Shown: one piece after another, positions 2,854 through 63,028 of the stretch
Layout of the letters: each line of letters opens with the position of its first letter
Numbering within the stretch: position 1 is the first letter of the stretch
Assembly (NCBI GenBank): GCA_964509455.1
Contig: CAZDXS010000075.1
Location: forward strand, 7,131 to 71,130
Origin: an uncultured Enterobacteriaceae bacterium
Lineage (GTDB): Bacteria; Pseudomonadota; Gammaproteobacteria; Eutrophobiales; Eutrophobiaceae
Direction of reading: 5' to 3'
Length of the DNA: 64,000 nucleotides
Notes under the pieces: generated by a model
What the model was told of the DNA's origin: nothing
The model's database searches: none
The model's input: the letters and a program-made list of their open reading frames with translations, nothing else
Made by a program: the position numbers and the translations under genes

Positions 2854-3720
2854 GGCGGAGCGGCCGGGCGCGGCGGCGTTCACTCCGGGCGCAGTGGCGC
2901 TCACTCGGGCGAGGCTGGGCGTGCGGCGTTCACTCCAGCCGCGGCGAGTCGCACCACGGCCCGCCCGCCACACAACGCAGGAAAGCCTGCTCCAAGTCGG
3001 GGGCGTGGAAGCGGCGGCGACAGTCCGCCGGCGCACTCCCCGAACCGCCACAGCTACGGCGTCATCGCCCGCCTGGCGTTACCGGCCGCGGCGCGGGAGG
3101 CGCACAACTTGGACTGAGGCGGAGCGGCGGCGCTCCTGCCGGGCGCGGCGGCGTTCACTCCAGCCGCGGCGAGTCGCGCCACGGCCCGCCCGCAACGCAA
3201 CGCAGGAAAGCCTGCTCCAAGTCGGGGGCGTGGAAGCGGCGGCGACAGTCCGCCAGCGTCCCCAGGCAACGGATTTTTCCCTGGTGCAACAGCGCCGCCC
3301 GGCGTTCATGCCGGACGCGGCGCGGGTTGCACACAGACTGAACCGAGAGGCGCGGCGGCGTTCACTCCAGCCGCGGCGGTTCGCGCCGTGGCCCGCCCCC
3401 AACGCAACGCAGGAAAGCCTGCTCCAAGTCGGGGGCGTTGAAACGGCGGCGACATTCCGCCGGCGTCCCCAGGCAACGGATTTCCCCCTGGCGCAACAGC
3501 GCTCACGGCAGGACGCGGCAGCGCACTCCTGCCGGGCGTAGCGGGGCGCGGCGGCGTTCAGGCCGGGCGGTAGCGCCGCCCGGCGTTCATGCCGAGCGCA
3601 GCGGTTCGCGCCGTTACCCGCCCGCCACGCAACGCAGGAAAGCCTGCTCCAAGCCGGGGGCGTTGAAGCGGCGGCGACAATCCGCCGGCGTCCCCAGGCA
3701 ACGGATTTTCCCCTGGTGCA
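2790..3720. repeat. Diverged tandem duplication of a convergent gene junction: 2 copies of the gshA 3' end and 4 copies of the ABC-ATPase 3' end (unit about 215-222 bp)
   Basis: The string acgcaggaaagcctgctccaag recurs at about 2976, 3195, 3409 and 3632. The gshA C-terminus YSYGVIARLALLAAAREAHSLG* is repeated as HSYGVIARLALPAAAREAHNLD* at about 3048-3117. On the minus strand each unit re-encodes QGKIRCLGT.ADCRRRF.AP.LEQAFLRCVAGG of the ABC ATPase. Confidence 0.85.
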
Positions 3721-4336
3721 AAAACGCCGCCCGGTCGCACAACTGCTCGGCGTCCGCCGCCAGGTGGGTGCTGAACAGGCAGGTATGCCCCTGTCGTTTC
3801 AGACGCAACAGGCAATGGCGCAGGGACAAGCGCGCCGCGGGGTCCAGCCCGCTCAGCGGCTCGTCCAGGACCAGCAACTTCTTGCCGCTCAACAGGCAAG
3901 CGGCCAACCCCAGTTTCTGCGCCGTTCCCTTGGACAAAAGCCCGGCGGGCTTGTCCAGCGCGGCGGCGTCCAAGCGCAGGCTGCGCAACACCGACGCGGC
4001 CGCCGCGGCATCGAAGCCGGCGCCGTGCAACGCCCCCATGTAACCCAGAAAGTCGCGGCCGCTGAGACAGCCGGGCGGCGCAAACTTCTCCGGCAAGTAC
4101 GCAACCTGCGCCCGGGCGGCGGGCGCGCCGTGGTCCCGCCCGAAGAGGGCAATGTCGCCGGAGGTTACGGCGTCCAGGTCCAGCAGGCACTTCAGCAGGG
4201 TGGTCTTGCCGGCGCCGTTCTCCCCCAACAACCCCAGGAACTCGCCGGCGAACACGTCCAGGTCAAGTCCCGCCAGCACCGCCCGGCCGCCGCGGCACCG
4301 GGTTACCTGCCGCAGGCGGACGGCCGGCGGCGGCAC
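3614..4336 (-). CDS. ABC transporter ATP-binding protein (ABC-2/PilH-like)
   Basis: Walker A GENGAGKTTLLK, ABC signature LSKGTAQKL and Walker B LLVLDEP are present. The start is uncertain. The ORF track extends to 4495, but that overlaps the upstream pilin gene. A GTG at 4336 lies 8 nt after the pilin stop, and an ATG at 4411 is the alternative. Confidence 0.7.
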   Translation of the reverse strand: MPPPAVRLRQVTRCRGGRAVLAGLDLDVFAGEFLGLLGENGAGKTTLLKCLLDLDAVTSGDIALFGRDHGAPAARAQVAYLPEKFAPPGCLSGRDFLGYMGALHGAGFDAAAAASVLRSLRLDAAALDKPAGLLSKGTAQKLGLAACLLSGKKLLVLDEPLSGLDPAARLSLRHCLLRLKRQGHTCLFSTHLAADAEQLCDRAAFLHQGKIRCLGTPADCRRRFNAPGLEQAFLRCVAGG

Positions 4337-4343
4337 GGCGGCG

Positions 4344-5141
4344 TCAGTACAGGAACAGGGCGTTGCAGCGCGTGTTGTCACTGTCGACGTTCCAGGAAGA
4401 ACCCGCCGCATCGGCGTTGTTGATGCAAGGGGCGCCGCCGGCTGCGGACCACAGGATGACCTCGTTGCCGGGTGCGCCGCCGGCGCCAAAATCATCGCCG
4501 CCCACCGCCCTTTCGCCGGACTTTGCCGCGCTCACGGCGCCGCGCACGATGCCGCGCCCCGGGTCGCCGTCATCCAGCTTCACGTCCAGTTCCCGCAACA
4601 GGGCCGGCGTAGCGCCGGCGCCGAACGCATAGGCAAGGCGCACGACGGAACCGGCGCCGCCGCCGTCATAATCGTCGGTGAGCCCCAGCAACACCGGTTG
4701 CTGAAAAGCGTTGCCCGGCACCTGCCCGGTCAATACCCCCGCCGCGTATTGCGCGGCGCCGGCCGTGTTGCCGGCGTAAGCGCCGTTCAGCAACCGCGCC
4801 TGGGACAGGTGCGCCCAGACCGCGCCGGCCTCCTCCCAGCGGTCGATGCGGCCGTTCTGGTTGCCACCGGTGGTAGGGGCGCCGCCGCAGTCGGGGTCCA
4901 CTTCCGAGCCGATGGCGCGGCACGCCAGCGCCGCCGGCATATCGCCCGGCGCCTGGCGAAAACGATCAATGAAGCTGTAATAGGCGGCTTGCACGCCGGA
5001 GCTCTGCTCTGCCATGTTGCGCACCCGGGCGCCGTTGACCAGCTGTTGCCCTTTCAAGACGCCGCCCAACAACAGGCCCACCAGGACCAGGACGACGGCG
5101 ATTTCCACCAGGGTAAAACCCGGCTGCTTGCGTGTTTTCAT
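4344..5141 (-). CDS. Prepilin-type N-terminal cleavage/methylation domain protein (type IV pilin or minor pilin, 265 aa)
   Basis: The N-terminus MKTRKQPG|FTLVEIAVVLVLVGLLLGG is a class-III signal peptide with Gly-Phe at the cleavage site, Glu+5 and a hydrophobic helix. Confidence 0.8.
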   Translation of the reverse strand: MKTRKQPGFTLVEIAVVLVLVGLLLGGVLKGQQLVNGARVRNMAEQSSGVQAAYYSFIDRFRQAPGDMPAALACRAIGSEVDPDCGGAPTTGGNQNGRIDRWEEAGAVWAHLSQARLLNGAYAGNTAGAAQYAAGVLTGQVPGNAFQQPVLLGLTDDYDGGGAGSVVRLAYAFGAGATPALLRELDVKLDDGDPGRGIVRGAVSAAKSGERAVGGDDFGAGGAPGNEVILWSAAGGAPCINNADAAGSSWNVDSDNTRCNALFLY

Positions 5142-5220
5142 ACATTACTCCTTATACGGGGTTGAGGATTGTTATATGCCGACGACGGGCGGCGCCCGGC
5201 GCCGACGGTGTTGACTCCGG

Positions 5221-5907
5221 TCAGCGCATGCCGGCGGCCGGAACCTGCGCCGGCGCGGCGGCGCCGACGCGACTGCGGTTGCCCATGTCGGGCGGCGCAC
5301 CCGGATGCACCGCGGCATACGGAGGCAAGCGGGTCGCCCAAGGCGGCGCCGCGCCGCGGGCCAGGCGCAACGCGGCGGCGTAGCGCGCCGCCAGTTGCGG
5401 GTCTTGCAGGCGATGCCGGGCGATGTGAACCCCGTGCAACATCCAGGGCCAGCGGCCGGCCGGGTCGTCGAGAAAGCGCTGGTGAATGAACCTCAGCATC
5501 TGCCGGGTGCGAGCGCGGTCCGGCACGGCCGCGTACAGGCGGGCGGCGGACAACAGCGGGTACTGGAATCCTTCGTCCAGCGCCAGCACGGCGCTCAGCC
5601 AGTCCGCGACCCGGTCATAATCCAGCCGGGCGAACGGAATGTTAAGCCCCCGCTGATTGTCAAAGGACTGCAACCACAGCATCAAGGTCCGTGCCAGGGC
5701 GGCCGACTCCCCCAGGCTGAGCAGGCGCAACAGCGGCTCGGGCGGTGCCGGCGGCAGAGCCGCCGCCGTTGCCGGCGGCGGCGGCCGTGCGCAACTCCAG
5801 GCAACTTGGGCCAGCAAGGCGGCGACCAACAACGCCCGCACCAGGGGCGGAACTCGCGCCAAGGGTCTTTCTTCACGAGCGCCGAGTGCTGTTTTCAGGG
5901 ACAACAT
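5221..5907 (-). CDS. Hypothetical secreted/membrane protein
   Basis: The ORF sits between the permease and pilin genes. The N-terminus has a hydrophobic stretch (LVRALLVAALLAQVAWSCA). The start was taken at the first Met after the upstream stop. No recognisable family. Confidence 0.4.
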   Translation of the reverse strand: MLSLKTALGAREERPLARVPPLVRALLVAALLAQVAWSCARPPPPATAAALPPAPPEPLLRLLSLGESAALARTLMLWLQSFDNQRGLNIPFARLDYDRVADWLSAVLALDEGFQYPLLSAARLYAAVPDRARTRQMLRFIHQRFLDDPAGRWPWMLHGVHIARHRLQDPQLAARYAAALRLARGAAPPWATRLPPYAAVHPGAPPDMGNRSRVGAAAPAQVPAAGMR

Positions 5908-5917
5908 CACGGGTGCG

Positions 5918-6673
5918 CTATACGTTTTTCCGGTACAGGTCAAACATGCCCACCGCCGCCAGGACCGCCAGGTAGAGCGCGGTCTGGACCAACACCGTCC
6001 CCAGGGCGGCGGCCGGGACGCCGTGCGCCAGCCAGCCGCTGCGGGTGAACGCCGCCAGGTCCGGCAACAGCAACGCCAGCGCGGTTACCGCCAGGCGGAT
6101 GAAATCCAGGAACGGTGCGCCGGATTCCAGCAACGGGCTGACGCTCAACAGCCGCAGCGTCTCCAGGCTGCGCGCCAGCAGGTAGAACATCATGGCGGCG
6201 GCGAACGCCGGCGTCGCATCACGGAACGTGAACAGGCACGCCAGGCTGAGGGCGACGACCAGCAACAGCTCGCACGCCAGGGACAGGGCCCAGCAGGCAA
6301 CGGCGAACGGCGGCGCGTACAGGAACAACGGCAGACTGAACGCCGCCGCCAGGGCCAGGGCCAGGAACCCGTGGCCGCACAGCTTGCCCAGCAAGTAGTG
6401 ATGCCGGGGCATGGGCATGGCTAGGAGGAGCTCTAGGCTCTTGTCGTGCAACTCCCTCAAGCCGCTGGTAATCACAAACAGGCAGACGCCGACTACTGCG
6501 AACAGGCGCAACAGGGCGGCGGCGATGGGCGCTTGCACCTGCTCGGACTCGGCAAGGCTCAGGGCGCCGCTGAACTCCGCCAGGCCGCACAGCCCGGCGC
6601 CAACCGCCGCCGCCGGCAACCACAGGCGCCGGCGCCAGGCCTCGATCACGGTGAAACGTGCGATGGCGAACAT
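5918..6673 (-). CDS. ABC-2 family transporter permease (NosY/PilI-like)
   Basis: It has 6 predicted TM helices. The N-terminus MFAIARFTVIEAWRRRLW and the motif SGLRELHDKSLELLLAMPMPRHHYLLGK are typical of ABC-2 permeases. Confidence 0.65.
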   Translation of the reverse strand: MFAIARFTVIEAWRRRLWLPAAAVGAGLCGLAEFSGALSLAESEQVQAPIAAALLRLFAVVGVCLFVITSGLRELHDKSLELLLAMPMPRHHYLLGKLCGHGFLALALAAAFSLPLFLYAPPFAVACWALSLACELLLVVALSLACLFTFRDATPAFAAAMMFYLLARSLETLRLLSVSPLLESGAPFLDFIRLAVTALALLLPDLAAFTRSGWLAHGVPAAALGTVLVQTALYLAVLAAVGMFDLYRKNV

Positions 6674-7700
6674 GGATCAGGGCAAGCGGCCGGCGGTGAC
6701 CATTCCGTAATACAAGCGCGGGCGCGACAGCCATACCACGATGTCGTCAAACGGCGCCGCCGCGAGATTGTTAGGCGCACCGCCCTGGTACAGGGGCTCG
6801 CCGTCGGGGCAGGCCGTGCCGCCCGGGTTGTAGCCGGTGGCGTTGCCGCAGGGAGCGCCTTCAAAGTCGGCGTTGGCGCCGTCCGGCCGCAGGTTGGCGC
6901 CGGTGGAGTAAATGACGGCCGCGGGCGACTCCGTGGGCGCGGTCAACAACCCGCCCCGCTCATTTTGCGCCGGCAGCCACAGGCGCCGGCGCCAAGCCTC
7001 GATCACGGTGAAACGTGCGATGGCGAACATGGATCAGGGCAGGCGGCCGGCGGCGACCATTCCGTAATACAAGCGCGGGCGCGACAGCCATACCACGAGG
7101 TCGTCAAACGGCGCCGCCGCGAGATTGTTAGGCGCACCGCCCTGGTACAGGGGCTCGCCGTCGAGACAGGCCGTGCCGCCGCCCGGGTTGTAGCCGGCGG
7201 CGTTGGCGCCGTCCGGGCGCAGGTTGGCGCCGGTGGAGTAAATGACGGCCGCGGGCGGCTCCGTGGGCGCGGTCAGCAGCCCGCCCCGCTCATCTTGCAC
7301 CGGCAGCCACAGGCGCCGGCGCCAGGCCTCGATCACGGTGAAACGGGCGATGGCGAACATGGCTCAGGGCAACCGTCCGGCGGTGACCATTCCGTAGTAC
7401 AGGCGCGGGCGCGACAGCCATACTACGATGTCGTCAAACGGCGCCGCCGCGAGATTGCTGGGCATACCGCCCTGGTACAGGGGCTCGCCGTCGGGACATG
7501 CCGTGCCGCCGCCCGGGTTGTAGCCCGTGGCGTTGCCGCAGGGAGCGCTTTCAAAATCGGCGTTGGCGCCGTCCGGCCGCAGGTTGGCGCCGGTGGAGTA
7601 AATGACGGCCGCGGGCGGCTCCGTGGGCGCGGTCAACAGCCCGCCCCGTTCATCCCGTACCGTCAGGTTGTCCGTTGCCGCCCGGCTCAGAGTGAACGGA
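6614..7700. repeat. 3 diverged tandem copies (about 330-357 bp) of the pilin 3' end fused to the permease 5' end. They generate two chimeric ORFs (7034-7360 and 6677-7030).
   Basis: ORFs 7034..7360 and 6677..7030 both begin with the permease N-terminus MFAIARFTVIEAWRRRLWLP. Both then continue as variants of the pilin C-terminus (.QDERGGLLTAPTE.PAAVIYSTGANLRPDGANA...GYNPGG.TAC.DGEPLYQGG.P.NLAAAPFDD.VVWLSRPRLYYGMV.AGRLP*). Confidence 0.85.
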
Positions 7701-8155
7701 TTCGCGGCATCGCTGAAGCTGCGGTCCACCCGGTAGCGCCAGTAGCCGTTGAACGGGTCGGCAGCGGCCTGGCGCGGCGTTCCCCACGGGTCCGCCTCGG
7801 GCAACCCCAAGGTGCGCCAGGGCAGGTATCCCTCCGCCGCCGGCGCGGCAGAGCAGGCGGGCGGCGCCATGCCGTAGTCGGCGGCGCCGGGGTCGGCGGC
7901 GGTGGTCGGGCACGGCAGGTAACCGTGGACCATGGCGAACCCCATCAGGGCTTCCCGGGCGCGCTCCAGCTCCTTCATCGCAGCCGCCCGCTGGCGCCCT
8001 TCCAGGAGCAACCCCAGGGGATTGATCATGCCGCCCAGCGCCAGGGAGGCGATGAGCAACACCAGCGTCAACTCCAGCAGGGAAAATCCCGCTTGACGCG
8101 GTCGGCCGGCCGGCGCGGTGCGCCGCTCAGGGAGAAACAACCACCAACTGGTCAT
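7364..8155 (-). CDS. Prepilin-type protein (type IV pilin-like, with a C-terminal disulfide-loop region)
   Basis: It contains ...RPRQAG|FSLLELTLVLLIASLALGG (Gly-Phe cleavage site, Glu+5). The C-terminus has a Cys...Cys loop (SAPCGNATGYNPGGGTACPDG). The start is uncertain. The ORF track extends to 8236, overlapping the upstream gene. Confidence 0.7.
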   Translation of the reverse strand: MTSWWLFLPERRTAPAGRPRQAGFSLLELTLVLLIASLALGGMINPLGLLLEGRQRAAAMKELERAREALMGFAMVHGYLPCPTTAADPGAADYGMAPPACSAAPAAEGYLPWRTLGLPEADPWGTPRQAAADPFNGYWRYRVDRSFSDAANPFTLSRAATDNLTVRDERGGLLTAPTEPPAAVIYSTGANLRPDGANADFESAPCGNATGYNPGGGTACPDGEPLYQGGMPSNLAAAPFDDIVVWLSRPRLYYGMVTAGRLP

Positions 8156-11093
8156 TGAATGTGTCCGTGCGTTCGCCGGCGGTGAACAGGTCATCGGCAT
8201 ACAGGGTCGCGTTGTCTTCCTCGTAATAATCGGCAAGCAGGCCGGAGGAGCGCCGTTGCCCCGGCAGAGCCATGCCGGCGGCGGCCGCCAGCGCCGGCCG
8301 GTCGTCCATCACAACCGCCGGCCCGCGCACGCCTAGGCAATCGATGCCGGCCGCGCAGGCGCCGCGGCCGCCGGGCGCGAAACCGGCGGCGTAGGCGACG
8401 TAGAGCAACTGGCGCCAGCGGTTTTTTACGAACCAGTGCGGCAAATCGCCGGAGGTCTCGGCCGGGTAATAATCAATGGCGTCCGCGCGCACCGCGCCGC
8501 GAGCGCCGCGCGGCGGCACGGTCAATGCCAGCCGCGCCGCCGGGACGTCATCGTCCAGGAGTTCCAGGAGCGCCAGGGGTCTGCCGACCCGGTAAGCGTC
8601 CCCGGGCTGAAAGTCATTGTTCGCGCCGCCGTCCAGGGCCGCCACGCCCAGGGAGCGGGAGGCGACCGTCGTCACCATGCCCGCCGAGCCGTCGGCCAAG
8701 TTAAACACCGTGTCGCCCGGCAACACGCCGCGGCGCAGGAAGTCCCCGGCGGCGTCTTCCAGGACGACGGCGCTGCCGGCGCCGCCGGCCGTGCCGCCGC
8801 CGACGTCATAATGCGGCAGGGGGACGGCCGCCGGGGCGCTCGCGCAGGCGGCGCCGTACCCCAGGCAGACACTGCGTTGTCGCCGCCCGGCCGCGACCCC
8901 GACGACCTCGTTGCCCTGGTAGCGCAGGTTGAGCCGGTAACGGCGGCGGTTCACGTAACCGTGGTAAACCGCGTAATCGTCCCCCGCCCGGTAGCGGTTG
9001 GTCGCGCCGCCGTGCAACGCGGCGCTGAGCCGGGAGCCAGAGACGGCAGTCACCAGCCCGAAAGAACCATCTGTTGTGTTTTCCACCAAGTCGCCCACCC
9101 GCACGCCGGCCCGGGCGAAATCCCGGGTCGAGTCATGCAAGCGGTCGCCGCTCGCGGCGTCCGTCCTGCCGTCCAGGCGGCGCAGGGCGGCCTTGATGCG
9201 ATAACGACCGGCGGCCGCCGGGTCCGGCAACAGCGGCGCCAGCCCTTGCATGGTCAGCGCCGCGGCACCGGCGAGTCCCGTGACGACCGCGACATACGGC
9301 TCGTAGATGAGGTCGCCGCGAGCAATGCCGGCGCGGGTAAAATCCTGCGCCGGGTCCAGCAACAGGACGCTCGTGGAACCGGGCGCCGCCGTGCCTTCCA
9401 GATACGGGGCGACGGCGCTACGGCCGGCGCAATCCGCCGTGCGCGCATTGAGCCAGGCGCACCGGCCCTGGGCAGCGGCGATGCCGACCCCCCCAACGGG
9501 GGACTGGCGCACCGCCGCGGCGAGGGCGGGACGCAGGCCGGGCACGGAGCCGGTGACCACGCCGCCGGAGCGCAGACGCCAGGTCGCGGTAAAACCCGTG
9601 GGAAACACCGCGCCCGGCGTGTGTATGGCCAACATGCCCTTGCGCGCGCCGGCGCGGCCGTTGGTGCGGGGCAAGCGGTAGCCGTCGCCGGGGCGGAACG
9701 CATTGTTCCTGCCGAAATCAAGCCCGGCGACCGTCAGGGCGGCGGGGCCGGCGACGACGCCGACATGCCCCGATGAGCCGTCCGCCAGGTTTTCCACTAG
9801 GTCGCCGGGCAGCACGCCGCGAGCGATGAAGTCCCCGTGGGGGTCCGCCAGGATCAAGCCGCGGCTGCCGGCGCCGGCCGTGCCGGTGTTGCCGCGCAGG
9901 CGCCAGGATTCCCCGACGTCAAAATCGTTTTCCACGCCGCCGTGAAGGGCGGCGACCGTCAGCGACGTCCTGGTCACCGCCGCAACCGAGCCCCGCGACC
10001 CGTCGTCCAGGTTTTCCACCACGTCGCCGGCCGTCACGCCCAGCTTGCGGAAGTCCCGGGAAACGTCTTTCAGCACCCGGCCGCGGCTGCCGGCGCCGGC
10101 CGTGCCCGCCAGTGCGCGGGCCGGGTCGCGCCGCTCAATGAAATAAACGTCGCCCCGGTCAAAATCGTTTTCCAGTCCGGCGGACGGCGCGCTCAGGCGC
10201 AACGTCTTGGGGGTTACCGCCGTTACCTGCGCCACGGAACCGTCGGTGATGTTGCGCACCACGTCGTGAACGGCAATCCCCCAGTCGCCAAAGTCCGCGC
10301 CCTTGTCCGTGAGTTGCGCCGCGTTGTCGCCGCCGCTGTGGCGGCCGCGCACGATGCGGCCGGCGGCGCGCGGGTCGGCGAACGGCGTCAGCGGGGGATA
10401 GACCCCGTGGGCGGCGTAGTGGCGGGCCAGCAGGGCCCGCACCTCGTGCAACGCCCGCCGCTCCACCACCGCCATCAACTCCGCCCGGCTGACGGCCGCG
10501 ACCTGGTCGTTGCCCGCCGTGGTGGAGAACTTGCCGGCGCCCGCATCGGCGTTGCCGCCTTCCAGGTAGGCGGCGGGGTCATTGCCGGGACGCGCGTGCT
10601 GGGCGCCCACGGGCGCCCCGGGGGCGATGATCACCGCGACCATGTCGCCCACCCCGTCCAGGCTCAGCTCGCCCGGGGTCTCGCTGTTGATAATCGCATC
10701 GTTGGACTGCGCATTTTTGAAGTTGGCGGACAGGGCGTACCATAATCTCTCGCCGGCGGCGTCCCTGGGGTCGTCCAGCCCCAGGATGGTGAACGGCAGG
10801 CGCCCCAGGGTGGTGCCGGCGCCCGCCGAGCAGTTGGTTTCCGGCCTGCCGTCGTTGTTGCGGTCGGGACAGGGCAGAAAACCCGGCCCCTTCTCCTGGT
10901 TGTCGCGCAGGTCGGCGTAGTTCATCGCATAGTGCAACAGGGCGCGCCGGGCCTGGTTCAACGCCTCCTTGCTAACGGCGCGACGAGCATAGGAGCGGGC
11001 ATGCTCGTTCAGGCCGGACAGCAACGTCCAGCCGGCGCCCACCACCAGCGCCAACATGAGCGTCAGCAACGCCGCGCCGCGAGCGCGCCTCAC
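8127..11093 (-). CDS. Large pilus-associated repeat protein (MshQ-like by size and position; about 988 aa) with an N-terminal signal/anchor
   Basis: A likely GTG start at 11093 overlaps the upstream stop as GTGA. The N-terminus is VRRARGAALLTLMLALVVGAGWTLLSG. There are six internal repeats of about 60 aa with consensus DF.R.GV..GD.V.NL.DGS.G.V..V....L.V.AL.GG..N.F..GD.YR. Confidence 0.65.
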   Translation of the reverse strand: MRRARGAALLTLMLALVVGAGWTLLSGLNEHARSYARRAVSKEALNQARRALLHYAMNYADLRDNQEKGPGFLPCPDRNNDGRPETNCSAGAGTTLGRLPFTILGLDDPRDAAGERLWYALSANFKNAQSNDAIINSETPGELSLDGVGDMVAVIIAPGAPVGAQHARPGNDPAAYLEGGNADAGAGKFSTTAGNDQVAAVSRAELMAVVERRALHEVRALLARHYAAHGVYPPLTPFADPRAAGRIVRGRHSGGDNAAQLTDKGADFGDWGIAVHDVVRNITDGSVAQVTAVTPKTLRLSAPSAGLENDFDRGDVYFIERRDPARALAGTAGAGSRGRVLKDVSRDFRKLGVTAGDVVENLDDGSRGSVAAVTRTSLTVAALHGGVENDFDVGESWRLRGNTGTAGAGSRGLILADPHGDFIARGVLPGDLVENLADGSSGHVGVVAGPAALTVAGLDFGRNNAFRPGDGYRLPRTNGRAGARKGMLAIHTPGAVFPTGFTATWRLRSGGVVTGSVPGLRPALAAAVRQSPVGGVGIAAAQGRCAWLNARTADCAGRSAVAPYLEGTAAPGSTSVLLLDPAQDFTRAGIARGDLIYEPYVAVVTGLAGAAALTMQGLAPLLPDPAAAGRYRIKAALRRLDGRTDAASGDRLHDSTRDFARAGVRVGDLVENTTDGSFGLVTAVSGSRLSAALHGGATNRYRAGDDYAVYHGYVNRRRYRLNLRYQGNEVVGVAAGRRQRSVCLGYGAACASAPAAVPLPHYDVGGGTAGGAGSAVVLEDAAGDFLRRGVLPGDTVFNLADGSAGMVTTVASRSLGVAALDGGANNDFQPGDAYRVGRPLALLELLDDDVPAARLALTVPPRGARGAVRADAIDYYPAETSGDLPHWFVKNRWRQLLYVAYAAGFAPGGRGACAAGIDCLGVRGPAVVMDDRPALAAAAGMALPGQRRSSGLLADYYEEDNATLYADDLFTAGERTDTFNDQLVVVSP

Positions 11094-11970: not shown

Positions 11971-12560
11971 GCGCCGCTCTCCGGTTGAAGGGAAAACCAC
12001 TGCAGGGTGCAAGTCGCCGCCAGGTTGCCGACGGCGGGGTCGGCCGCCGGCCGTGCGACGCTGCGGATCAGTTCGCATGCGGACACGGTGTGCAGTCCCC
12101 TGCCCCGTTCATCCAGCAACGCCAGCAATGCAAACAGGTCGCCTTCGTGCAACAGTTGCAGGTCCAGGTTCATTTCGCTGGCGAAGACCCCGTAGTTCCC
12201 CGCCGGCAGGGGAAGCCCGGACTGGTAGGGACGCCGGGCGCTGATCTCGTAAGCCAGGGACGGCAACCCCAGGCCGGCGCCGGCTTCTTGCAGGACTTCC
12301 ACCCAATTCAACCGCTGTTCTTCTCCCAGCAGGCCCGTATCTCCCAGGGCGGTGAATGCCGGCAGGTAGTCCTGCACCAGTTGCTCCTCCTCGTCCAGCG
12401 CCCGGTAGCGCTCGCCGGCGGCGCGCAAGCGCTCGCCGGCATGCTGGAACTCTTGCTCCATGCGCCGCTCGTACAGGAAGGCGCCGGCCACCAAGACGGC
12501 GGCAACCGCCGCAGCGGCGACAAAAAACGCCACGGCGCCGCGCACATAATCCCAGTCCAT
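11967..12560 (-). CDS. PilO/MshJ-like inner-membrane pilus assembly protein (single N-terminal TM plus coiled-coil)
   Basis: The sequence is MDWDYVRGAVAFFVAAAAVAAVLVAGAFLYERRMEQEFQHAGERLRAAGERYRALDEEEQ. The architecture and operon position fit PilO/MshJ. The start was chosen as the first Met after the upstream stop. Confidence 0.5.
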   Translation of the reverse strand: MDWDYVRGAVAFFVAAAAVAAVLVAGAFLYERRMEQEFQHAGERLRAAGERYRALDEEEQLVQDYLPAFTALGDTGLLGEEQRLNWVEVLQEAGAGLGLPSLAYEISARRPYQSGLPLPAGNYGVFASEMNLDLQLLHEGDLFALLALLDERGRGLHTVSACELIRSVARPAADPAVGNLAATCTLQWFSLQPESGA

Positions 12561-12564
12561 GCCG

Positions 12565-14193: not shown

Positions 14194-14600
14194 AAACAGG
14201 TCCCAGCACGGAGAACACGACCCAGCCGCTGAGGCCGCCCAGCACCAGGGTCAGCAACGGCTCCATGAGTGATTGCAGGTGCGCCACGGCCGCGCGGGCG
14301 GGGCGCGTGTAGAAATAGGCGACATTTTCCAGGGCGGGCGCCAAAGCGCCGTCGCGCGTGTAGAAATAGGCGACGTTTTCCAGGGCGGGCGCCAAAGCGA
14401 CGCCGCGCCTGTGGTACAGGTCCGCCCGCCGGGCGCCGATGAACGACGCCGGACGCCCCCGACACTCCGGTCGGGGCGGGCGCCAGGGCGCCGCCGCGCC
14501 AGTGGTACAGGTCCGCCCGCTGGGCGCCGATGAACAGGGCGCGGCGCTCCCGCAACCCTTGCCAAGGATCATATATCGATGCCGGCAACGAGATCATAAA
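14165..14600. repeat. Tandem duplication (about 404 bp) of the platform-gene 3' end joined to the MshI-like 5' end
   Basis: MISLPASIY.PWQGLRER.ALFIGAQRADLYHWRGGALAPA is encoded at 14193 (real) and again at 14597. ...AVA.LQSLMEPLLTLVLGGL.GWVVFSVLGPVYDLVAGIDI* ends at 14569 (real) and again at 14165. The join falls at the shared GALAPA microhomology. Confidence 0.85.
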
Positions 14601-15771
14601 CAGGTCCCAACACGGAGAACACGACCCAGCCGATGAGGCCGCCCAGCACCAGGGTCAGCAACGGCTCCATGAGTGATTGCAAGCGCGCCACGGCCTCGCG
14701 GGCGTCGCGCGTGTAGAAATAGGCGACGTTTTCCAGGGCGGGCGCCAGGGCGCCGGTGGTCTCGCCCACCCGCAACATGCGTTGCGCCAGGGGCGGAAAC
14801 AGGCCGCCGTCCGCAAAACCGTCCGCCAGGGTGCTGCCGGCCGCCACCGCCCTGCCGACGTTTTGCAAGGCCTGCTCAACGGCGCGGTTGCCGGCGATGC
14901 GCTCGCAGGCCTCCAGGCAGTCAATGACGGTGATGCCGGACGAGTACATCATGGCGAAGCAGGCGGAGACGCGCGCCAGGATGAGTTTCTCCAGCACCGG
15001 CCCCAGCACCGGCGTCTTTAGTTTCAACCGGTCCAGGGCCCGCCGGAGGCCGGGGCTGAGCCGGGCGGCGCCGGCGACCATGCCGACAAGCAACGGCGGC
15101 GCCGCTAACATCGCGTGCCAGTACTGCGTAACCCACCCCGAGACGCGGATCAACAGCCGGGTATGGACCGGCAACGTTGACCCGGTATTCTTGACGAACG
15201 TCAACAGCTCCGGCGCCAGGTAGATCATCAAGAAGAACACCGTGCCGATAACGGCGACGCCGGCGACCAGCGGGTAGATCATCAGCTTCCGAAAAGAGGA
15301 CGCTTGCTCGTCCTGCCACTTCAGGTTCTTGCCCAGCCGCTCCAGCACCCGGTCCAGCTCCCCGGCCTGCTCCCCGGCGCGCACCAGGTTGACGAACACG
15401 TCGGAAAAAACGCCCGGAAAAGCGCCCAGGGACTGGGACAGGGTCTTGCCGCCCTCTATGGCTTCCGACATGGCCGTTACGATTTCGCGCAGGCGCGGAT
15501 TGTCGGCGGCGGTGCGCAGGTCCCGCAGGCCTTCCAGCAGCGGCACGCCGGCGCGCGCCGTCTGCTCCAAGTGAAAGCAAAACAGGGCCAGGTCGCGGCG
15601 CCCCACGCGCGCGGCGCGGCGCCAGGCCGGGGCGAGCCGCAACCGGCAACTGACCAGCTCCAGCCCCATGCCGCGCAGGCGCAACTCCAAGTCGGCCTCG
15701 TTGGCGGCGTCCATGCGGCCGGTGGTCGCCCTGCCGGCCGCGCTGATCCCCTTGTAACGATAAGACGCCAT
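14569..15771 (-). CDS. Type II secretion/type IV pilus platform protein (GspF/PilC/MshG family)
   Basis: The 400-aa ORF has duplicated GspF domains and 3 TM regions. Motifs include GETTGALAPALENVAYFY. Confidence 0.9.
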   Translation of the reverse strand: MASYRYKGISAAGRATTGRMDAANEADLELRLRGMGLELVSCRLRLAPAWRRAARVGRRDLALFCFHLEQTARAGVPLLEGLRDLRTAADNPRLREIVTAMSEAIEGGKTLSQSLGAFPGVFSDVFVNLVRAGEQAGELDRVLERLGKNLKWQDEQASSFRKLMIYPLVAGVAVIGTVFFLMIYLAPELLTFVKNTGSTLPVHTRLLIRVSGWVTQYWHAMLAAPPLLVGMVAGAARLSPGLRRALDRLKLKTPVLGPVLEKLILARVSACFAMMYSSGITVIDCLEACERIAGNRAVEQALQNVGRAVAAGSTLADGFADGGLFPPLAQRMLRVGETTGALAPALENVAYFYTRDAREAVARLQSLMEPLLTLVLGGLIGWVVFSVLGPVYDLVAGIDI

Positions 15772-15777
15772 TTCGCC

Positions 15778-17493
15778 TTACTCGCGGCGCAGGCCGCCGC
15801 CCAGGTCCACGACGCGGGCAATCTCTTCGAGGCTGGTGACGCCCTCCAGGACCTTGGCGACGCCCATGTCCGCCAGCGGCTGAAAGCCTTTTTCCAGGGC
15901 CGCCCGCGCCAGTTCCCGGGGCGTTGCCCGGCGGGCGACCAGCTCGTCCAGGTCCGGGTCGAAAGGCAGGATCTCCATCAGCGCCAGGCGCCCCCGGTAG
16001 CCCTGCCCGGCGCAGGCGCGACAACCCCTGGCGCGGTACAGGACCGGCGGCTCCGCCGCCTGCGGCCGCCCCGCCAGGGCGCACTCCGCCGCGGCGGCCG
16101 GCGCCGGTTCCCGACACTCCTCGCAAAGCCGCCGCACCAGCCGTTGCGCCGCTGCGCCGCTGACGTTGCCCGCCAGCACGTCCGACTTGATGCCCAGGTC
16201 CAGCAACCGGGGAACGGCGCCCACCGCCGAGTTGGCGTGCAACGTGGAAAACACCTGGTGGCCGGTCATGGCGGCGCGCAACGCCATGGAGGCGGTGTCT
16301 TCGTCGCGAATTTCGCCCACCAGGATAATGTCCGGGTCCTGGCGCATCATGGAGCGAATGCCGTTGGCGAATCCCAGCCGGGACTTCTCGCTGACCGCGG
16401 TCTGCCGAATCATGGCAGCGGGGTATTCCACCGGGTCCTCCAGGGTCATAATGTTGACGGACTCGGAGTTCAAGTGGTGCAAAATCGAGTACAAGGTGGT
16501 GGTTTTGCCGCTGCCGGTGGGGCCGGTCACCAGCACCAGTCCTTCCGGGCGCGCCATGATGCGCTTCAATGCCGCCAGCTCAGCGGCCGCCAGCCCCAGC
16601 TGCTCTAAGGCGAGAATGCCGCGATGGCGGTCCAGGATGCGCAGGACAATGTTCTCGCCGTGCAAGGTGGGCAGCGTCGACACGCGAAAATCCACCTGGC
16701 GGCCCGCCAGCGACAGGGAAATGCGCCCGTCCTGCGGTGCGCGGGTCTCGGCAATATCCAGACCCGCCATTACTTTCAGGCGCACCGCCAGGGCGGACCA
16801 GTAGTTGCGGTGCAGGCTGCGCACCTGCCGCAACACGCCGTCAATGCGGTAACGGAAACGCAGGAACCCCGCCTCCGGCTCGAAGTGCACATCGGAGGCG
16901 GAGCGCTTGACCGCATCCGCCAACAGCGCGTTGACCAGGCGCACCACCGGCTGGCTGTACTCGTCGCTCTCGGCGGACAGGCTCTGGTGATCTACTTCGC
17001 CCGTCTCTATTTCGTGCAAGATGCCGTCAACGGACAGTTCGAAGCCGTAGAAGCGGTCAATGGACTTTTCGATTTCGGCCTCGCCGGCCAGCACCGGCGC
17101 CAGCTCCGCCGCGCCCGCCAAGTGGGCGTTGAGCTGGTCCAGGACCACGATGTTGAACGTGTCCGCCATGGCCACCGTCAGCACGCCGGCGGCGGGGTCG
17201 TGGGTGACCGGCGCCACCCGCAGGCGCCGCGCCAGCTCCTCGGGAATCATGGCGATGGCCTCGCTGTCCGCCACGACGCGATTCAGATCAACGCGCGGCC
17301 GCCCCGCCACGCCGCTGATGACGTCGTGAATGACGGCCTCCGTGGCGAACCCCAGGCGCACCAGGATCTTGCCCAGCAACTCCCGGGTGCGCCGTTGCTC
17401 CGTCAAGGCGATTTCCACCTGGTCGGAGGTGACAATGCCCTTGCGGAGCAGCATCTCCCCCAGGCGCAGCGGTTGCCCGGCGGCGCCGCTCAC
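15778..17493 (-). CDS. GspE/PilB/MshE-family secretion ATPase
   Basis: Walker A GPTGSGKTTTLYS, the Asp box, the His box and the C-terminal tetracysteine CRAC....C..C motif are present. A GTG start overlaps the upstream stop as GTGA. Confidence 0.9.
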   Translation of the reverse strand: MSGAAGQPLRLGEMLLRKGIVTSDQVEIALTEQRRTRELLGKILVRLGFATEAVIHDVISGVAGRPRVDLNRVVADSEAIAMIPEELARRLRVAPVTHDPAAGVLTVAMADTFNIVVLDQLNAHLAGAAELAPVLAGEAEIEKSIDRFYGFELSVDGILHEIETGEVDHQSLSAESDEYSQPVVRLVNALLADAVKRSASDVHFEPEAGFLRFRYRIDGVLRQVRSLHRNYWSALAVRLKVMAGLDIAETRAPQDGRISLSLAGRQVDFRVSTLPTLHGENIVLRILDRHRGILALEQLGLAAAELAALKRIMARPEGLVLVTGPTGSGKTTTLYSILHHLNSESVNIMTLEDPVEYPAAMIRQTAVSEKSRLGFANGIRSMMRQDPDIILVGEIRDEDTASMALRAAMTGHQVFSTLHANSAVGAVPRLLDLGIKSDVLAGNVSGAAAQRLVRRLCEECREPAPAAAAECALAGRPQAAEPPVLYRARGCRACAGQGYRGRLALMEILPFDPDLDELVARRATPRELARAALEKGFQPLADMGVAKVLEGVTSLEEIARVVDLGGGLRRE

Positions 17494-17680
17494 GGCCGCT
17501 GCGCTCCGCCCCAGTCAACGCGGCAATGCGCCGGGCGACCTGCCGCCTGTTGATGCGCCGCTGCCCCGTCAGGGCGCCCAACCTGGCGGTCAGCGACCAT
17601 GCCCTTGCGGAGCAACATCTCCCCTAGGCGCAACGGTTGCCCGGCGGCGCCGCTCACGGCCGCTGCCCTCCGGACAAGGC
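17437..17680. repeat. 2 diverged tandem copies (about 162 bp) spanning the TPR-gene 3' end and the ATPase 5' end
   Basis: gtgagcggcgccgccgggcaaccg.tgcgcct.ggggagatg.tgctccgcaagggcat occurs twice on the minus strand, at 17493 and 17657. The upstream copy makes a 56-aa chimeric ORF. Confidence 0.8.
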
Positions 17681-18403
17681 GGCAATGCGCCGCAGAACCT
17701 GTTCCATGTTGGCAGGCCGGGCGGACTGCCCCGCCAGGGCGACGGCATGGCGATAATAACCCAGCGCCGCCGCGCCGTAGCCCAACCGGTCCAGGCTGAC
17801 GGCCAGGTTCAGGGCGTGGGCGGGGTTGGCGGGGTCCAGCCGGTAGGCGTCGAAAAAGGACTGTTGCGCCTGGGGCCAGTGCGCTTGCGCCGCCTGGATG
17901 CGACCCAGGGTGAAATGCAAAAAGGAGTCATTCGGATGCTGTTGCAACAGCCCCTTGATGAGGTCTTCCTCGCGCCGTCCCGGCCGGGCGCGCCCAATGC
18001 TGATCAATGCCGCACGGGGCAGTGCGTCCTGCGGATCCCGCAGCGCCAGGCGGCGGTACAGGGCGGCGGCCGTGTCCACGTCGTTGGCCGCCAGGGCGCA
18101 GGCCGCCAGCCCCAACATCGCGTCGCGGTTGTGCGGGGCGACCCGCAGGGCCGCGGCGTAGGCGCGGGCGGCGGCGGCCGGGTCGCCGGCCTGGTAGGTC
18201 TGGTACGCCGCGGCAATCATGTCGTCTGCCTCTGCCGGCGCTTGGGTGCGGGTGATTGCGAGCGCGGCGTCCGCCGCCCCGGGCGCGGCAAGCGGGGCGG
18301 CGCCCGGCAACAAGACGGCCGCCAGCAACGCCAGGGGCGCACGGCAACGCAACGCCCGGCGTCTGCCCGCCGCCCATGCCGTGCCCAGGTTGCCGACGCT
18401 CAT
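17654..18403 (-). CDS. TPR-repeat protein (MshN-like pilus biogenesis protein) with a signal peptide
   Basis: TPR-like helices are visible (AYQTYQAGDPAAAARAYAAALRVAPHN...). It sits between the secretin and the ATPase. Confidence 0.65.
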   Translation of the reverse strand: MSVGNLGTAWAAGRRRALRCRAPLALLAAVLLPGAAPLAAPGAADAALAITRTQAPAEADDMIAAAYQTYQAGDPAAAARAYAAALRVAPHNRDAMLGLAACALAANDVDTAAALYRRLALRDPQDALPRAALISIGRARPGRREEDLIKGLLQQHPNDSFLHFTLGRIQAAQAHWPQAQQSFFDAYRLDPANPAHALNLAVSLDRLGYGAAALGYYRHAVALAGQSARPANMEQVLRRIAALSGGQRP

Positions 18404-20079
18404 CGCTTCTCTCCGGGGAAAAACGCCTTGTAGGCGCTAAAGTCCCCGTCCAGGCCGGGGTTGCGGATGATGAGGGGGCGCAGGAAAACGACCAGCTCGG
18501 TTTTCTCGCGCTCGCGCTGTTGCGTGCGGAACGCGGCCCCTAAGAGCGGAATGCGGGAAAGCCCGGGGATCGCGTTGTTGCGGCCGCGGTCTTCATTTTG
18601 CATTAGCCCGCCCATGACCGCCACCTGGCCGTCGTTCAGTTGCAGCACGGATTCCATTTCCCGCACGCGGATTTCCGGCACCGGGCTGGCGATGGTCAAG
18701 GCCGGGTTGGGGTCGTTGACGAAACGGTTAATGCGGGAGATGCTGGGACGCACATTGAGGATGACGGAATCATCGGCGTTGATTCGCGGCGTGATGGTCA
18801 TCACGATGCCCACCGGCACGGTTTTTACAACGGTTTCGAAAGCGTTGGTGGCCACGCCCTGGGTGGTACTGGTCTCCTGCTCTATTTCAAAATAAACCAC
18901 GTTGTCGACCACTTTCAGGATGGCGGACTGGTTGTTCAGCGCCATGATTTGCGGACTGGACAACACGTTCACGTCGCCGAACTCCTCTAACAGCCGGAGC
19001 GCGGCGCTGAGGGCGCGGCCGCGTCCCGGGTCGTTGTCGTCGTAGCGCAGGGAGAAAAAGGAGGCGGTGTTGACCGGCGGCGACGTGATGGTGCTGGAAA
19101 CCGCGCTCAACCCCTCCAGCCCGGCCTGGTTCAGGACCTGCCAGTCAATGCCGGCCTGGTGCTGGTTCGACAGCCCCACTTCCACGATGGTCGCCTGTAT
19201 CAGCACCTGGCGGGCGGCGCTGCGCCGGGTCTCCGCCAGCAATTGTTGCACCAGCTCGTGTTGGGCCGCGGTCGCTTTCACGACCAGCACGCCCGATTCG
19301 GGATGGGGGATGACGGCATGGCTGACGCCCGACCCGTCGGTTTCGGACGCACCGGGTGCGCCGTGCGGTTCCAGGACGGCGGAGACGCTCGCGACCAGGT
19401 TGGCCCAAAAGTGGTTGGTCAGGGCGCTGGCAATGGTGGTGGCGGAGTTGTTGGCGGCGGCGCCGGCCGCCGCGCCGCCGGTTGCACCGGCGCTGGCGAT
19501 TTGCGACCCCACTTGCACCACGTGGGACGTGTCCCGCTTCATGTCCAGGTAGTCAACCCGGTACGTGTGGAAATACGGCTCGTCGGGGGTGATGAGCACG
19601 TTGGCGCCGTCCAGCGTGTAGCGCAGGCTGAGTTGCGCCGCTATGCGCCGCAACAGTTGCGGCAGGGTCTGCTCCACCGCGTTCATGGTGACGGCGCCGG
19701 CAACGCCCGGGGCGATGTCCACGTTCACCCGCGCGTCCCGCGCCAGGGCGAACAACAGCTCCCGCACGGGGACTTCGTTGACCACCACCGTGTATTTTTC
19801 TTGGGGGCGCGGCGGCGCCGGCGGCGGCACGGGCGGCGTCTGCCCGACAATGGCGGGAATGGCGGCGGGCGCGGGCGCGGCAACGGCGGGTGCGGCGATA
19901 TGACCCGCAGAGGGCGTTATCGGGCTTGGGGCGAACGGGGCGCAGGCGGCGCCGGCCAGGCAACAAGCAAGGAGTGGGAAAAAACGGCGGCCAGCGGCCC
20001 TGCCCCTCCCGGCTCCAAAAAACGATCCATACGCAAACGCGCCGATCCGATGCGGTAATCCACAATACAGAGATCCCAT
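18400..20079 (-). CDS. Secretin (PilQ/GspD/MshL family), lipoprotein-type N-terminus
   Basis: The secretin C-domain is present (VLSSPQIMALNNQSAILKVVDNVVYFEIEQ..., GLSRIPLLG). A lipobox-like LLACCLAGAAC lies at the N-terminus. The exact start is uncertain. Confidence 0.85.
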   Translation of the reverse strand: MGSLYCGLPHRIGAFAYGSFFGAGRGRAAGRRFFPLLACCLAGAACAPFAPSPITPSAGHIAAPAVAAPAPAAIPAIVGQTPPVPPPAPPRPQEKYTVVVNEVPVRELLFALARDARVNVDIAPGVAGAVTMNAVEQTLPQLLRRIAAQLSLRYTLDGANVLITPDEPYFHTYRVDYLDMKRDTSHVVQVGSQIASAGATGGAAAGAAANNSATTIASALTNHFWANLVASVSAVLEPHGAPGASETDGSGVSHAVIPHPESGVLVVKATAAQHELVQQLLAETRRSAARQVLIQATIVEVGLSNQHQAGIDWQVLNQAGLEGLSAVSSTITSPPVNTASFFSLRYDDNDPGRGRALSAALRLLEEFGDVNVLSSPQIMALNNQSAILKVVDNVVYFEIEQETSTTQGVATNAFETVVKTVPVGIVMTITPRINADDSVILNVRPSISRINRFVNDPNPALTIASPVPEIRVREMESVLQLNDGQVAVMGGLMQNEDRGRNNAIPGLSRIPLLGAAFRTQQREREKTELVVFLRPLIIRNPGLDGDFSAYKAFFPGEKR

Positions 20080-37891: not shown

Positions 37892-37894
37892 GCC

Positions 37895-63004: not shown

Positions 63005-63028
63005 GAGATTTCTCCTAATGGATGGTGG

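Follow-up and report, generated by a model that had tools for sequence, protein, structure and literature searches.

A probable MSHA-lineage type IV filament operon with a built-in ABC-2 module and duplicated gene junctions in an uncultured gammaproteobacterium

Among type IV filament machines the MSH pattern is one locus from which a prepilin peptidase gene is missing, and the TFFscan model for this kind treats MshM as mandatory (Denise et al. 2019, PMC6668835). ATP-binding cassette (ABC) transporter genes have been described within a pilus locus in Myxococcus xanthus, where PilG, PilH and PilI are encoded inside the pil cluster (PMC6060248). Here we analyse a 13-gene operon in a 64,000-nucleotide stretch (the window) of contig CAZDXS010000075.1, assembled from an uncultured bacterium (NCBI assembly GCA_964509455.1). 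We consider it probable that this operon is intact and encodes a type IV filament machine of the mannose-sensitive haemagglutinin (MSHA) lineage, that it represents a conserved, uncharacterised subfamily with an ABC module built in, and that coupled chimeric open reading frames (bridge ORFs) span some of its gene junctions.

All thirteen genes lie on the minus strand, from 20079 down to 3614 (Table 1), and the start codons were checked against orthologues and boundary sequences. The gene order, and the exact size of the 988-aa product, are as given in an original prediction made from the nucleotide sequence alone, which had also reported that the operon contains neither a retraction ATPase nor a prepilin peptidase; the gene content obtained from our scans agrees. 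Protein identities were assigned using Pfam and NCBIfam hidden Markov model (HMM) scans, with the NCBIfam model cutoffs, comparison to solved structures (PDB) and, for proteins negative in the HMM scans, AlphaFold2 models searched with Foldseek.

The secretin matches PF00263 (E 4.6e-43) and exceeds by a narrow margin the cutoff of TIGR02519, the MshL equivalog model (254.9 vs 250.2 bits), but stays under the cutoffs for GspD (181 vs 351 bits) and PilQ (122 vs 284 bits). Its lipobox cysteine is kept in all orthologues, consistent with the lipoprotein-type secretin first proposed, and HMM hits likewise bear out the TPR protein and the GspF-type platform (T2SSF, E 6.7e-48). The TPR gene starts on the stop codon of the secretin gene (ATGA), and the orthologue of its product in Oxalobacteraceae bacterium A2-2 is longer (534 aa). 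The ATPase carries a T2SSE domain (E 2.8e-127) and an MshEN domain (PF05157, E 2.2e-14), scores above the cutoff of the MshE-related cyclic di-GMP (c-di-GMP) motif model NF053729 (58.8 bits, cutoff 38), and displays a RLGEMLLRKGIV...Q motif. It aligns end to end with PilB structures (5zfr, 429 bits) and with GspE only over residues ~175-565, from which we conclude that its N-terminus is of the pilus/MshE kind rather than the GspL-binding kind. The enzyme had been called a GspE-type ATPase; the family holds, but the full-length match is to PilB, and GspE covers only the C-terminal half.

No Pfam, NCBIfam or PDB sequence match was found for the 542-aa protein. An AlphaFold2 model built from 52 family members (predicted local distance difference test, pLDDT, 83.6) consists of an N-terminal alpha/beta domain, a 60-residue helix (residues 309-368) and a C-terminal alpha/beta domain. 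In Foldseek searches of this model PilM came out on top (5eoy, 5eou, 2ych; E ~2e-10), followed by FtsA and then by the cytoplasmic domain of GspL. The model therefore supports the earlier designation as PilM/N-fusion-like, in that a predicted PilM-like actin fold is followed by a membrane or coiled-coil helix and a putative periplasmic alpha/beta domain, an architecture known from MshI and GspL. The two small proteins encoded next had been taken for a PilO-like protein (197 aa) and a small lipoprotein (150 aa), and neither name found support. For the former, only gene position suggests PilO: no Pfam or NCBIfam model matched it, and in a profile-profile comparison its family showed no similarity to that of the PilM/N-like protein; it is retained in all relatives. 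The latter, also without a Pfam or NCBIfam match, does not keep a lipobox among its orthologues, several of which have a plain signal peptide with no lipobox cysteine, ending just ahead of a conserved FGRLFTTPxER motif.

Both proteins originally recognised as prepilins carry an N-terminal methylation motif, and a third pilin-like protein, the 988-aa product, has to be added to them. Prepilin 1 (N_methyl, E 6.9e-5) has the cleavage motif QAG/FSLLE (slash, cleavage site), and its gene overlaps the 3' end of the giant gene by 29 nt. The 988-aa protein had been described as an MshQ-like large repeat protein. We rejected that identity, as the protein has no Pfam or NCBIfam match and its N-terminal module is paralogous to prepilin 1. 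When the first ~250 residues were turned into a profile, this aligned to the whole prepilin 1 family by hhalign with a probability of 98.9% (E 4e-17), the homologous part being ~210 residues long and the LPCPD motif being among those common to both. The leader, MRRARG/AALLTLML, lacks Glu5, as in GspK, and is kept in every orthologue. Behind the N-terminal pilin-fold module come some six repeats of ~60 aa, recognised by eye when the translation was inspected, and then a C-terminal module that is also conserved. Given the homology to prepilin 1 and the missing Glu5, we take the 988-aa protein to be, in all probability, a giant minor pilin, derived from the same family as prepilin 1 and hugely extended.

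Prepilin 2 has a class III signal (N_methyl, E 1.7e-6, and TIGR02532) with the leader MKTRKQPG/FTLVE and is preceded by its own AAGGAG ribosome-binding site. A pair of cysteines near its C-terminus could form a disulphide loop. Its similarity to MshA (9lab) is restricted to the N-terminus and not significant (E 0.77), and a PDB sequence search with it returned nothing useful. At 79-82% identity among relatives it is the best-conserved protein of the system, compared with 70-75% for the ATPase and 61-69% for the platform. Prepilin 2 is the likely major subunit.

Three further genes encode an ABC ATPase, an ABC-2-type permease and a hypothetical protein. The ATPase matches ABC_tran (E 7.8e-22), with Walker A, Walker B, signature and H-loop intact across orthologues. 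Of the bacterial proteins with a solved structure NosF is the closest (7o0y, E 1.7e-33), and ABCA nucleotide-binding domains score higher overall. The permease matches ABC2_membrane_3 under the cutoff (E 5e-4); within its family this domain is detected in 12 of 13 members (best E 4e-7) and ABC2_membrane_2 in 11 of 13, at sub-threshold scores. Homologues of the permease are named NosY-like or NatB-like at source, and a comparison of its profile with the PDB found no solved relative. The hypothetical protein has no HMM or PDB sequence match. Its AlphaFold2 model (62 sequences, pLDDT 82.6) shows one N-terminal membrane helix and then an all-helical TPR-like domain, for which Foldseek gave only generic and weak TPR matches (E >= 0.09).

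We compared the operon with 24 related loci (L001-L024) from a scan of species-representative genomes, with a close relative from SRR23238410 (L027) and with Oxalobacteraceae bacterium A2-2 (L028, GCA_053572355.1). The complete 13-gene order is also present in nine of these loci (L002, L004-L007, L009, L010, L015 and L024), and in four others (L001, L003, L008 and L017) the order is retained as far as the sequence or the detected matches go. The order prepilin 1, ABC-2 permease, hypothetical protein, prepilin 2, ATPase recurs in at least 15 uncultured gammaproteobacterial species, with GspF identity down to ~50%. In Oxalobacteraceae bacterium A2-2 the order is the same through prepilin 2, after which follow a hybrid histidine kinase and a REC-GGDEF cyclase (L028 12258-17752). 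Since this arrangement, including the ABC-2 permease and the hypothetical gene, recurs in so many species and in the Oxalobacteraceae, the ABC genes appear to belong to the system. The conservation points to the permease, the ATPase and the TPR-like protein as a fixed accessory module of the subfamily. Homologue searches yielded 62 clusters for the PilM/N-like protein, 81 for the hypothetical protein, 122 for the ABC-2 permease and, at E<=1e-3, 3196 representative clusters for the giant pilin, nearly all of them unnamed. A scan of JGI metagenome contigs for relatives gave nothing closer than 61%.

Some relatives carry additional genes. In the distant loci L011, L012, L018, L021 and L022 an ExeA/MshM-like AAA protein (AAA_22/TIGR03015-like) is encoded directly upstream of the secretin. 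A histidine-kinase-like membrane protein lies between prepilin 1 and the ABC-2 permease in L011 (18033-19715, minus strand), L022 (16520-18232, minus strand) and L018 (16769-18466, minus strand), recognised by HATPase_c in the first two and by ORF similarity only in L018. Such regulatory genes in or at the cluster, kinases and the REC-GGDEF protein alike, would fit control by c-di-GMP. An Rfam scan of the operon found no c-di-GMP riboswitch and no other RNA element. Separately, a low-GC insert is seen between the hypothetical gene and prepilin 2 in L001 (19855-20148), L002 (19311-19962) and L006 (13384-14017), with two small ORFs that resemble, by eye, a toxin-antitoxin pair (killer protein and helix-turn-helix antidote).

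How does the locus compare with described machines? With the MSHA system of Vibrio cholerae it has in common the MshL-type secretin, the TPR protein, the MshE-type ATPase with its MshEN domain, the GspF-type platform, the MshI-type fusion of a PilM-like and a bitopic part, and a single locus with no peptidase and no retraction ATPase; an MshM/ExeA-like gene is found in its distant relatives. It differs in that the secretin, TPR, ATPase and platform genes precede those in the I, J and K positions, in that neither MshM nor MshF is present in the window, in that there are three pilin-like genes, with the 988-aa paralogue in place of MshO, MshP and MshQ, in that an ABC-2 exporter and a TPR-like membrane protein are encoded between the pilin genes, and in that the proteins in the I, J, K and Q positions have no HMM match. 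The unlikeness of the gene order to that of the Vibrio msh locus was already part of the original prediction and stands, the present order being conserved across relatives. Of the component set proposed there (MshL/N/E/G/I/J/K/Q), MshL, MshE, the TPR protein and the MshI-like fold are retained; MshQ is not, and HMM scans gave no support for MshJ or MshK. Because MshM is missing, the block order is another and the pilin set is reduced and different, we file the locus as a variant of the MSH kind, outside the characterised MSHA family. Nor does it have the make-up of a type IVa pilus locus (separate PilM, PilN, PilO and PilP, a PilQ secretin and the retraction ATPase PilT), in view of the fusion of the PilM-like fold to a bitopic part, the low PilQ score and the lack of a PilT in the window.

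Several observations weigh against an MSHA-lineage machine with a built-in ABC module. A prepilin peptidase is missing, neither it nor a PilT-type ATPase turning up in the operon or in scans of large ORFs from the rest of the window, and no ExeA-like AAA ATPase corresponding to MshM lies in or beside the operon or in the window. HMM scans are blank for the 542-, 197-, 150- and 988-aa proteins. The ATPase scores nearly equally on the NCBIfam models for PilB and GspE, all below cutoff, and the best NCBIfam model for the platform is GspF (280 bits), ahead of PilC (253 bits), both also below cutoff. Prepilin 2, at 265 aa and ~80% conserved, looks more like a pseudopilin of a type II secretion system (T2SS) than like an exposed major pilin. 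As for the ABC module, locus L021 lacks the permease and hypothetical genes and no ABC ATPase adjoins the cluster in Oxalobacteraceae bacterium A2-2, exceptions which show that the module is not universal; and the hypothetical protein of the window is shortened, without the C-terminal ~45 aa kept in most orthologues.

Some of these points would suit a T2SS-like machine instead, in which a short periplasmic pseudopilus of prepilin 2 pushes substrates through the secretin and the ABC module could handle those substrates. Strong conservation of the main subunit is the pattern of GspG, the Glu5-less leader of the giant pilin is GspK-like, the best matches of the secretin among solved structures are GspD proteins, and GspL, too, combines a PilM-like domain with a membrane helix and a periplasmic part. 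We nevertheless regard a T2SS-like machine as unlikely. In the HMM scans the secretin passes the MshL model and fails the GspD model, no GspC, GspM or GspG-J scores above cutoff, and only the N-terminal methylation segments match GspG or GspH. The ATPase has an MshEN N-terminus in place of the GspL-binding N1 domain, the genes beside the locus in relatives include no conserved candidate for a substrate, and a repeat-bearing tip pilin of 988 aa would better suit an adhesin.

Alternatively, the permease, the hypothetical protein and the ABC ATPase could form an unrelated transporter that merely lies among pilin genes. The exceptions just described, and the generic source names of the ABC-2 homologues, would agree with this. 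An unrelated transporter does not explain, however, why the intercalated order has been kept in at least 15 species over the same span of GspF identity when the flanking genes are not conserved, nor why the spacers to neighbouring genes are as short as 3-10 nt. The hypothetical family is all unnamed and without a Pfam domain, and lies inside the pilus cluster in every fetched locus that has it. On this evidence a chance association seems to us scarcely credible, and we favour a module that belongs to the filament machine. In gene content it is like Myxococcus PilG/H/I (an ABC ATPase, an ABC-2-type permease and a third accessory protein), a likeness drawn from gene content only; the Myxococcus proteins serve a type IVa pilus with PilT, whereas in the present operon the gene for the likely major pilin interrupts the set of three. 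It is also like NosFY(D) and other ABC-2 (type V) exporters, with NosF as nearest bacterial solved relative, NosY-like names and a dedicated envelope partner. That partner is here a single-helix-anchored TPR-like protein and not the beta-helix protein NosD, and no link to a copper enzyme is seen.

Taken as an MSH variant, the machine might work as follows. If MSHA and type IVa pili are a guide, c-di-GMP would bind the MshEN N-terminus of the ATPase, which would polymerise prepilin 2 on a GspF-type platform that the PilM/N-like protein and the two small envelope proteins keep in place. A tip complex of prepilin 1 and the Glu5-less giant pilin may prime growth, so that the repeats would be displayed as a tip adhesin, and the fibre would leave through the MshL-type lipoprotein secretin with the help of the TPR protein. 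Genes for a prepilin peptidase and, if there is one, a retraction ATPase would have to lie at other places in the genome, the usual situation with MSH loci. Permease, ABC ATPase and TPR-like partner most likely form a NosFY-like or GldAFG-like complex in which ATP drives a periplasmic assembly step; export of a co-factor is another role that the module could have.

The most unexpected feature of the operon is found at its gene junctions. Most boundaries had been described as overlaps of start and stop codons. In fact only two of the twelve are direct 4-nt overlaps (secretin/TPR and 197-aa/150-aa, ATGA); one is the 29-nt overlap of the 988-aa gene with prepilin 1, four are spacers of 4-10 nt, one is a 79-nt gap before prepilin 2 with its own ribosome-binding site, and at the remaining four the genes are parted by 160-690 nt made up of diverged tandem copies of the junction. 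By self-comparison the repeats sit exactly at the TPR/ATPase, platform/PilMN, 150-aa/giant pilin and prepilin 1/ABC-2 junctions (Table 1). Each of these internal duplications leaves the genuine genes untouched and creates a chimeric ORF. This begins at the duplicated start codon, and its stop either overlaps the start that follows or precedes it by 3 nt. Bridge ORF 1 starts with GTGA on the TPR stop and ends with GTGA on the real ATPase start; bridge ORF 2 ends in the ATGA of the real PilM/N-like start at 14193. In bridge ORF 3 the duplicated N-terminus of the giant pilin (~30 aa) is in frame with the duplicated C-terminus of the 150-aa protein. Bridge ORFs 4 and 5 each join, in frame, the 20 N-terminal aa of the ABC-2 permease to the C-terminal ~90 aa of prepilin 1, and the ORFs are separated by spacers of 3 nt. 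The public annotation of the contig contains products identical to the 108-, 117- and 143-aa bridge ORFs, and at the platform/PilMN junction it has a different 135-aa ORF in place of bridge ORF 2.

The same kind of duplication occurs at other operons of the window. At a PGI/nucleotidyltransferase junction there are three copies (spacing 110), with 37-aa bridge ORFs chained by ATGA, and another duplicated junction, glycosyltransferase/DUF2064-like, follows a radical-SAM/DUF3641 gene and has spacings of 239 and 302. In all, about a dozen loci in the window contain local tandem duplications, and none such are present in 22 of the 24 related loci. All eight relevant spacings (164, 404, 428, 330, 357, 110, 110 and 239) fall into the single mod-3 class in which the ORF ends at the next start. 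The chance of this is (1/3)^6 = 0.0014 when arrays are counted once (six events), going down to (1/3)^8, ~1e-4. The copies themselves have diverged. Those derived from pilins have indels of 30 (or 27+3) and 3 nt, which keep the frame, and copy B of the prepilin 1 array has lost 9 aa, including a conserved disulphide cysteine, and is still in frame; the duplicated TPR end has a 6-nt deletion and a 5-nt insertion. Counts by codon position on the C-terminal pilin copies (6/4/11) show no significant skew and give no verdict on purifying selection.

Since the window comes from a metagenome-assembled contig, and the comparison was made at the level of assembled contigs, the repeats could be artefacts of assembly in which strain variants were joined in tandem, the true junctions being plain overlaps. 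In support of an artefact, the close relative L027 (91-94%, ~92% identical) has a plain, single-copy 4-nt TPR/ATPase overlap, and the bridge ORFs are seen in the NCBI record only, not in Logan contigs. However, one Logan contig from SRR16090826 is 100% identical to the window over 1407 nt (BLAST), and a second, of 2043 nt, matches the window exactly at both ends. This second contig, from a k=31 assembly, stops one base before the first 31-mer common to both TPR/ATPase copies, as expected of a k=31 graph at a true repeat. An independent assembly is identical outside the repeats and breaks at this one, and both contig ends of L027 coincide with repeats of the window. An artefact gives no reason why all unit lengths should be in the frame class that preserves coupling, and leaves unexplained the in-frame indels in non-functional copies, the three to four copies of differing lengths at two sites and the same kind of duplication at unrelated operons. 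Moreover, the redundant copies carry disabling changes (the cysteine loop lost in copy B, the two indels in the TPR end) and so are not functional alleles of another strain. Misassembly is therefore quite improbable in our view, and we think it very likely that the duplications are real, recent and turning over.

Two other interpretations of the arrays were rejected. A diversity-generating retroelement or pilS-like cassettes do not fit, as the repeat unit includes the ABC-2 start and the same pattern occurs at unrelated junctions. Locus L017 is not a second case of junction duplication, its prepilin 1/ABC-2 array being non-coding and hairpin-containing. That array (L017 17756-18326) has a 101-nt unit in ~5.6 copies, each with a GC-rich hairpin, and fills the intergenic space; L017 has further arrays with periods of 78, 138 and 250 nt. 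A search of JGI metagenome contigs with the degenerate junction pattern gave no match.

Two studies link ATGA/GTGA overlaps and very short spacers to translational coupling by termination-reinitiation (PMC6728339, PMC10666635). The bridge ORFs have the same 4-nt overlaps and short spacers, but differ in that the coupled ORFs are junk chimeras, apparently open only to carry ribosomes across the insert. Short tandem duplications would thus have struck four operon junctions in this lineage, and those that survive would leave bridge ORFs through which translation stays continuous and coupled along the operon. We infer that selection for uninterrupted coupled translation, or for the avoidance of Rho polarity, may lie behind the frame class. 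In the literature searched we found no earlier description either of the bridge-ORF phenomenon or of an MSH variant containing an ABC module. The wider proposition, that the locus exemplifies an unrecognised and widespread MSH-derived class with an ABC-2 exporter and its membrane-anchored TPR-like partner as a built-in second ATP module and a pilin adhesin of ~1000 aa at the tip, and that short tandem duplications arise frequently in this lineage while the length of those at operon junctions is under selection, is put forward tentatively and is in our estimation somewhat less likely to hold than to fail.

Table 1. Coordinates of the operon, its duplicated junctions and other features of the window (Cys, cysteine; spacings in nt, start to start).
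Feature	Coordinates	Strand	Length	Basis or remarks
Secretin, lipoprotein MshL type	18400-20079	-	559 aa	PF00263, TIGR02519, lipobox
TPR protein, MshN/TadD position	17654-18403	-	249 aa	TPR_19, TPR_16
Extension ATPase, PilB/MshE type	15778-17493	-	571 aa	T2SSE, MshEN, NF053729
Inner-membrane platform, GspF/PilC/MshG family	14569-15771	-	400 aa	two T2SSF domains
PilM/N-like protein, MshI/GspL-type architecture (predicted)	12565-14193	-	542 aa	AlphaFold2 and Foldseek
197-aa protein, PilO/MshJ position	11967-12560	-	197 aa	position; present in all relatives
Secreted protein with FGRLFTTPxER motif	11518-11970	-	150 aa	translations, boundary
Giant pilin, probable minor pilin	8127-11093	-	988 aa	hhalign against prepilin 1 family
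Prepilin 1, minor-pilin candidate	7364-8155	-	263 aa	N_methyl; start matches a 263-aa public gene product
ABC-2-type permease, divergent	5918-6673	-	251 aa	ABC2_membrane_3 below cutoff
Hypothetical protein, conserved	5221-5907	-	228 aa	AlphaFold2, orthologue alignment
Prepilin 2, likely major subunit	4344-5141	-	265 aa	N_methyl, TIGR02532
ABC ATPase	3614-4336	-	240 aa	ABC_tran; GTG start 7 nt past prepilin 2 stop
Promoter-like site, ~65 nt upstream of secretin start	20143-20171	-		consensus scan, 9/12 matches, weak
TPR/ATPase repeats	17388-17576 / 17554-17741			77% identical; spacing 164
Platform/PilM/N-like repeats	14072-14351 / 14476-14755			94% identical; spacing 404; with 51-nt sub-repeat and third partial copy
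150-aa/giant pilin repeats	11014-11454 / 11442-11891			89% identical; spacing 428
Prepilin 1/ABC-2 repeats	6611-7666			three copies, 85-94% identical; spacings 330 and 357
Bridge ORF 1	17490-17657	-	55 aa	duplicated ATPase 5' end fused to duplicated TPR 3' end
Bridge ORF 2	14190-14597	-	135 aa	duplicated PilM/N-like start codon, 29 nt inside platform gene
Publicly annotated ORF at the same junction	14165-14572		135 aa	in place of bridge ORF 2
Bridge ORF 3	11090-11521	-	143 aa	GTGA at both ends
Bridge ORF 4	7034-7360	-	108 aa	part of 6677-7360 array
Bridge ORF 5	6677-7030	-	117 aa	part of 6677-7360 array
ABC ATPase 3' end and downstream, repeats	2786-3727			four diverged copies; spacings 225/207/225; last copy also duplicates convergent gshA 3' end
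75-nt tandem repeat	20199-20348			two copies and partial third at 20406-20439; between upstream transporter gene and operon promoter region
PGI/nucleotidyltransferase junction repeats	36880-37210	+		three copies
Glycosyltransferase/DUF2064-like junction repeats	32577-33514	-		duplicated
Tandem units upstream of dxs	42806-43254			128-212 nt, non-coding
129-nt unit, convergent gene junction	40681-40919
129-nt periodicity	60449-60962
Giant repeat protein	21792-29954	-	2720 aa
Giant repeat protein	49469-54685	+	1738 aa
Giant repeat protein	54797-59641	+	1614 aa
Second filament-like locus	62564-63988	-		cut by window end
Single-domain T2SSF protein of second locus	63029-63988
tRNA-Leu(CAA)	21378-21464	-
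Phosphonate-type biosynthesis cluster	37151-40777	+

Tandem units are found at further places in the window, in non-coding DNA upstream of dxs and at a convergent gene junction, where the unit is 129 nt; a 129-nt periodicity is seen in an unassigned region (Table 1). The GC content of the window is ~62-73% (2-kb windows). Upstream of the operon, at a distance of ~1.3 kb and beyond a DMT-family transporter gene, lies a tRNA-Leu(CAA) gene. The flanking genes differ between the window and its relatives, whose conserved upstream genes are housekeeping ones (AhcY, MetF and a low-molecular-weight phosphatase); from the tRNA and the lack of flanking synteny, the operon could be situated in an island-like region.

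Three giant repeat proteins are encoded in the window, built of 27-aa acidic repeats (81-nt period) and FG-GAP-like repeats, and the 2720-aa member has no confident Pfam match. As substrates of the pilus machine they were rejected, as they are not conserved neighbours of the operon in relatives. The window ends within another type IV filament-like locus, distinct from the first. It contains a single-domain T2SSF protein, then a small pilin-like protein (MNQVAIVFGLIIATVVGAG...) and further unassigned ORFs, and its visible part shows no recognisable prepilin peptidase. The window also contains a phosphonate-type biosynthesis cluster, with genes for a nucleotidyltransferase, a phosphoenolpyruvate mutase fused to a nucleotidyltransferase and a thiamine pyrophosphate-dependent decarboxylase-like enzyme.

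For annotation the junctions are a hazard, in that chimeric junk ORFs are called as genes. For the biology of operons, the duplications show how insertions at gene junctions are tolerated, and offer evidence, at the level of sequence, for selection on coupling or against polarity. If this is true, their survival would amount to a natural experiment on selection for coupled translation, acting on bridge ORFs that are themselves meaningless. For the filament machines, the locus points to a conserved and apparently undescribed type IV filament subfamily, common in environmental Gammaproteobacteria including Burkholderiales, whose composition is minimal and testable, with three pilins of which one is a giant, putative tip pilin. 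To our knowledge Myxococcus PilGHI is the only comparable case of an ABC transporter in a pilus system, and its mechanism has never been explained. The strain name of Oxalobacteraceae bacterium A2-2 is of the kind given to isolates, and this carrier may be culturable; in that case experiments on what the ABC module does would come within reach.

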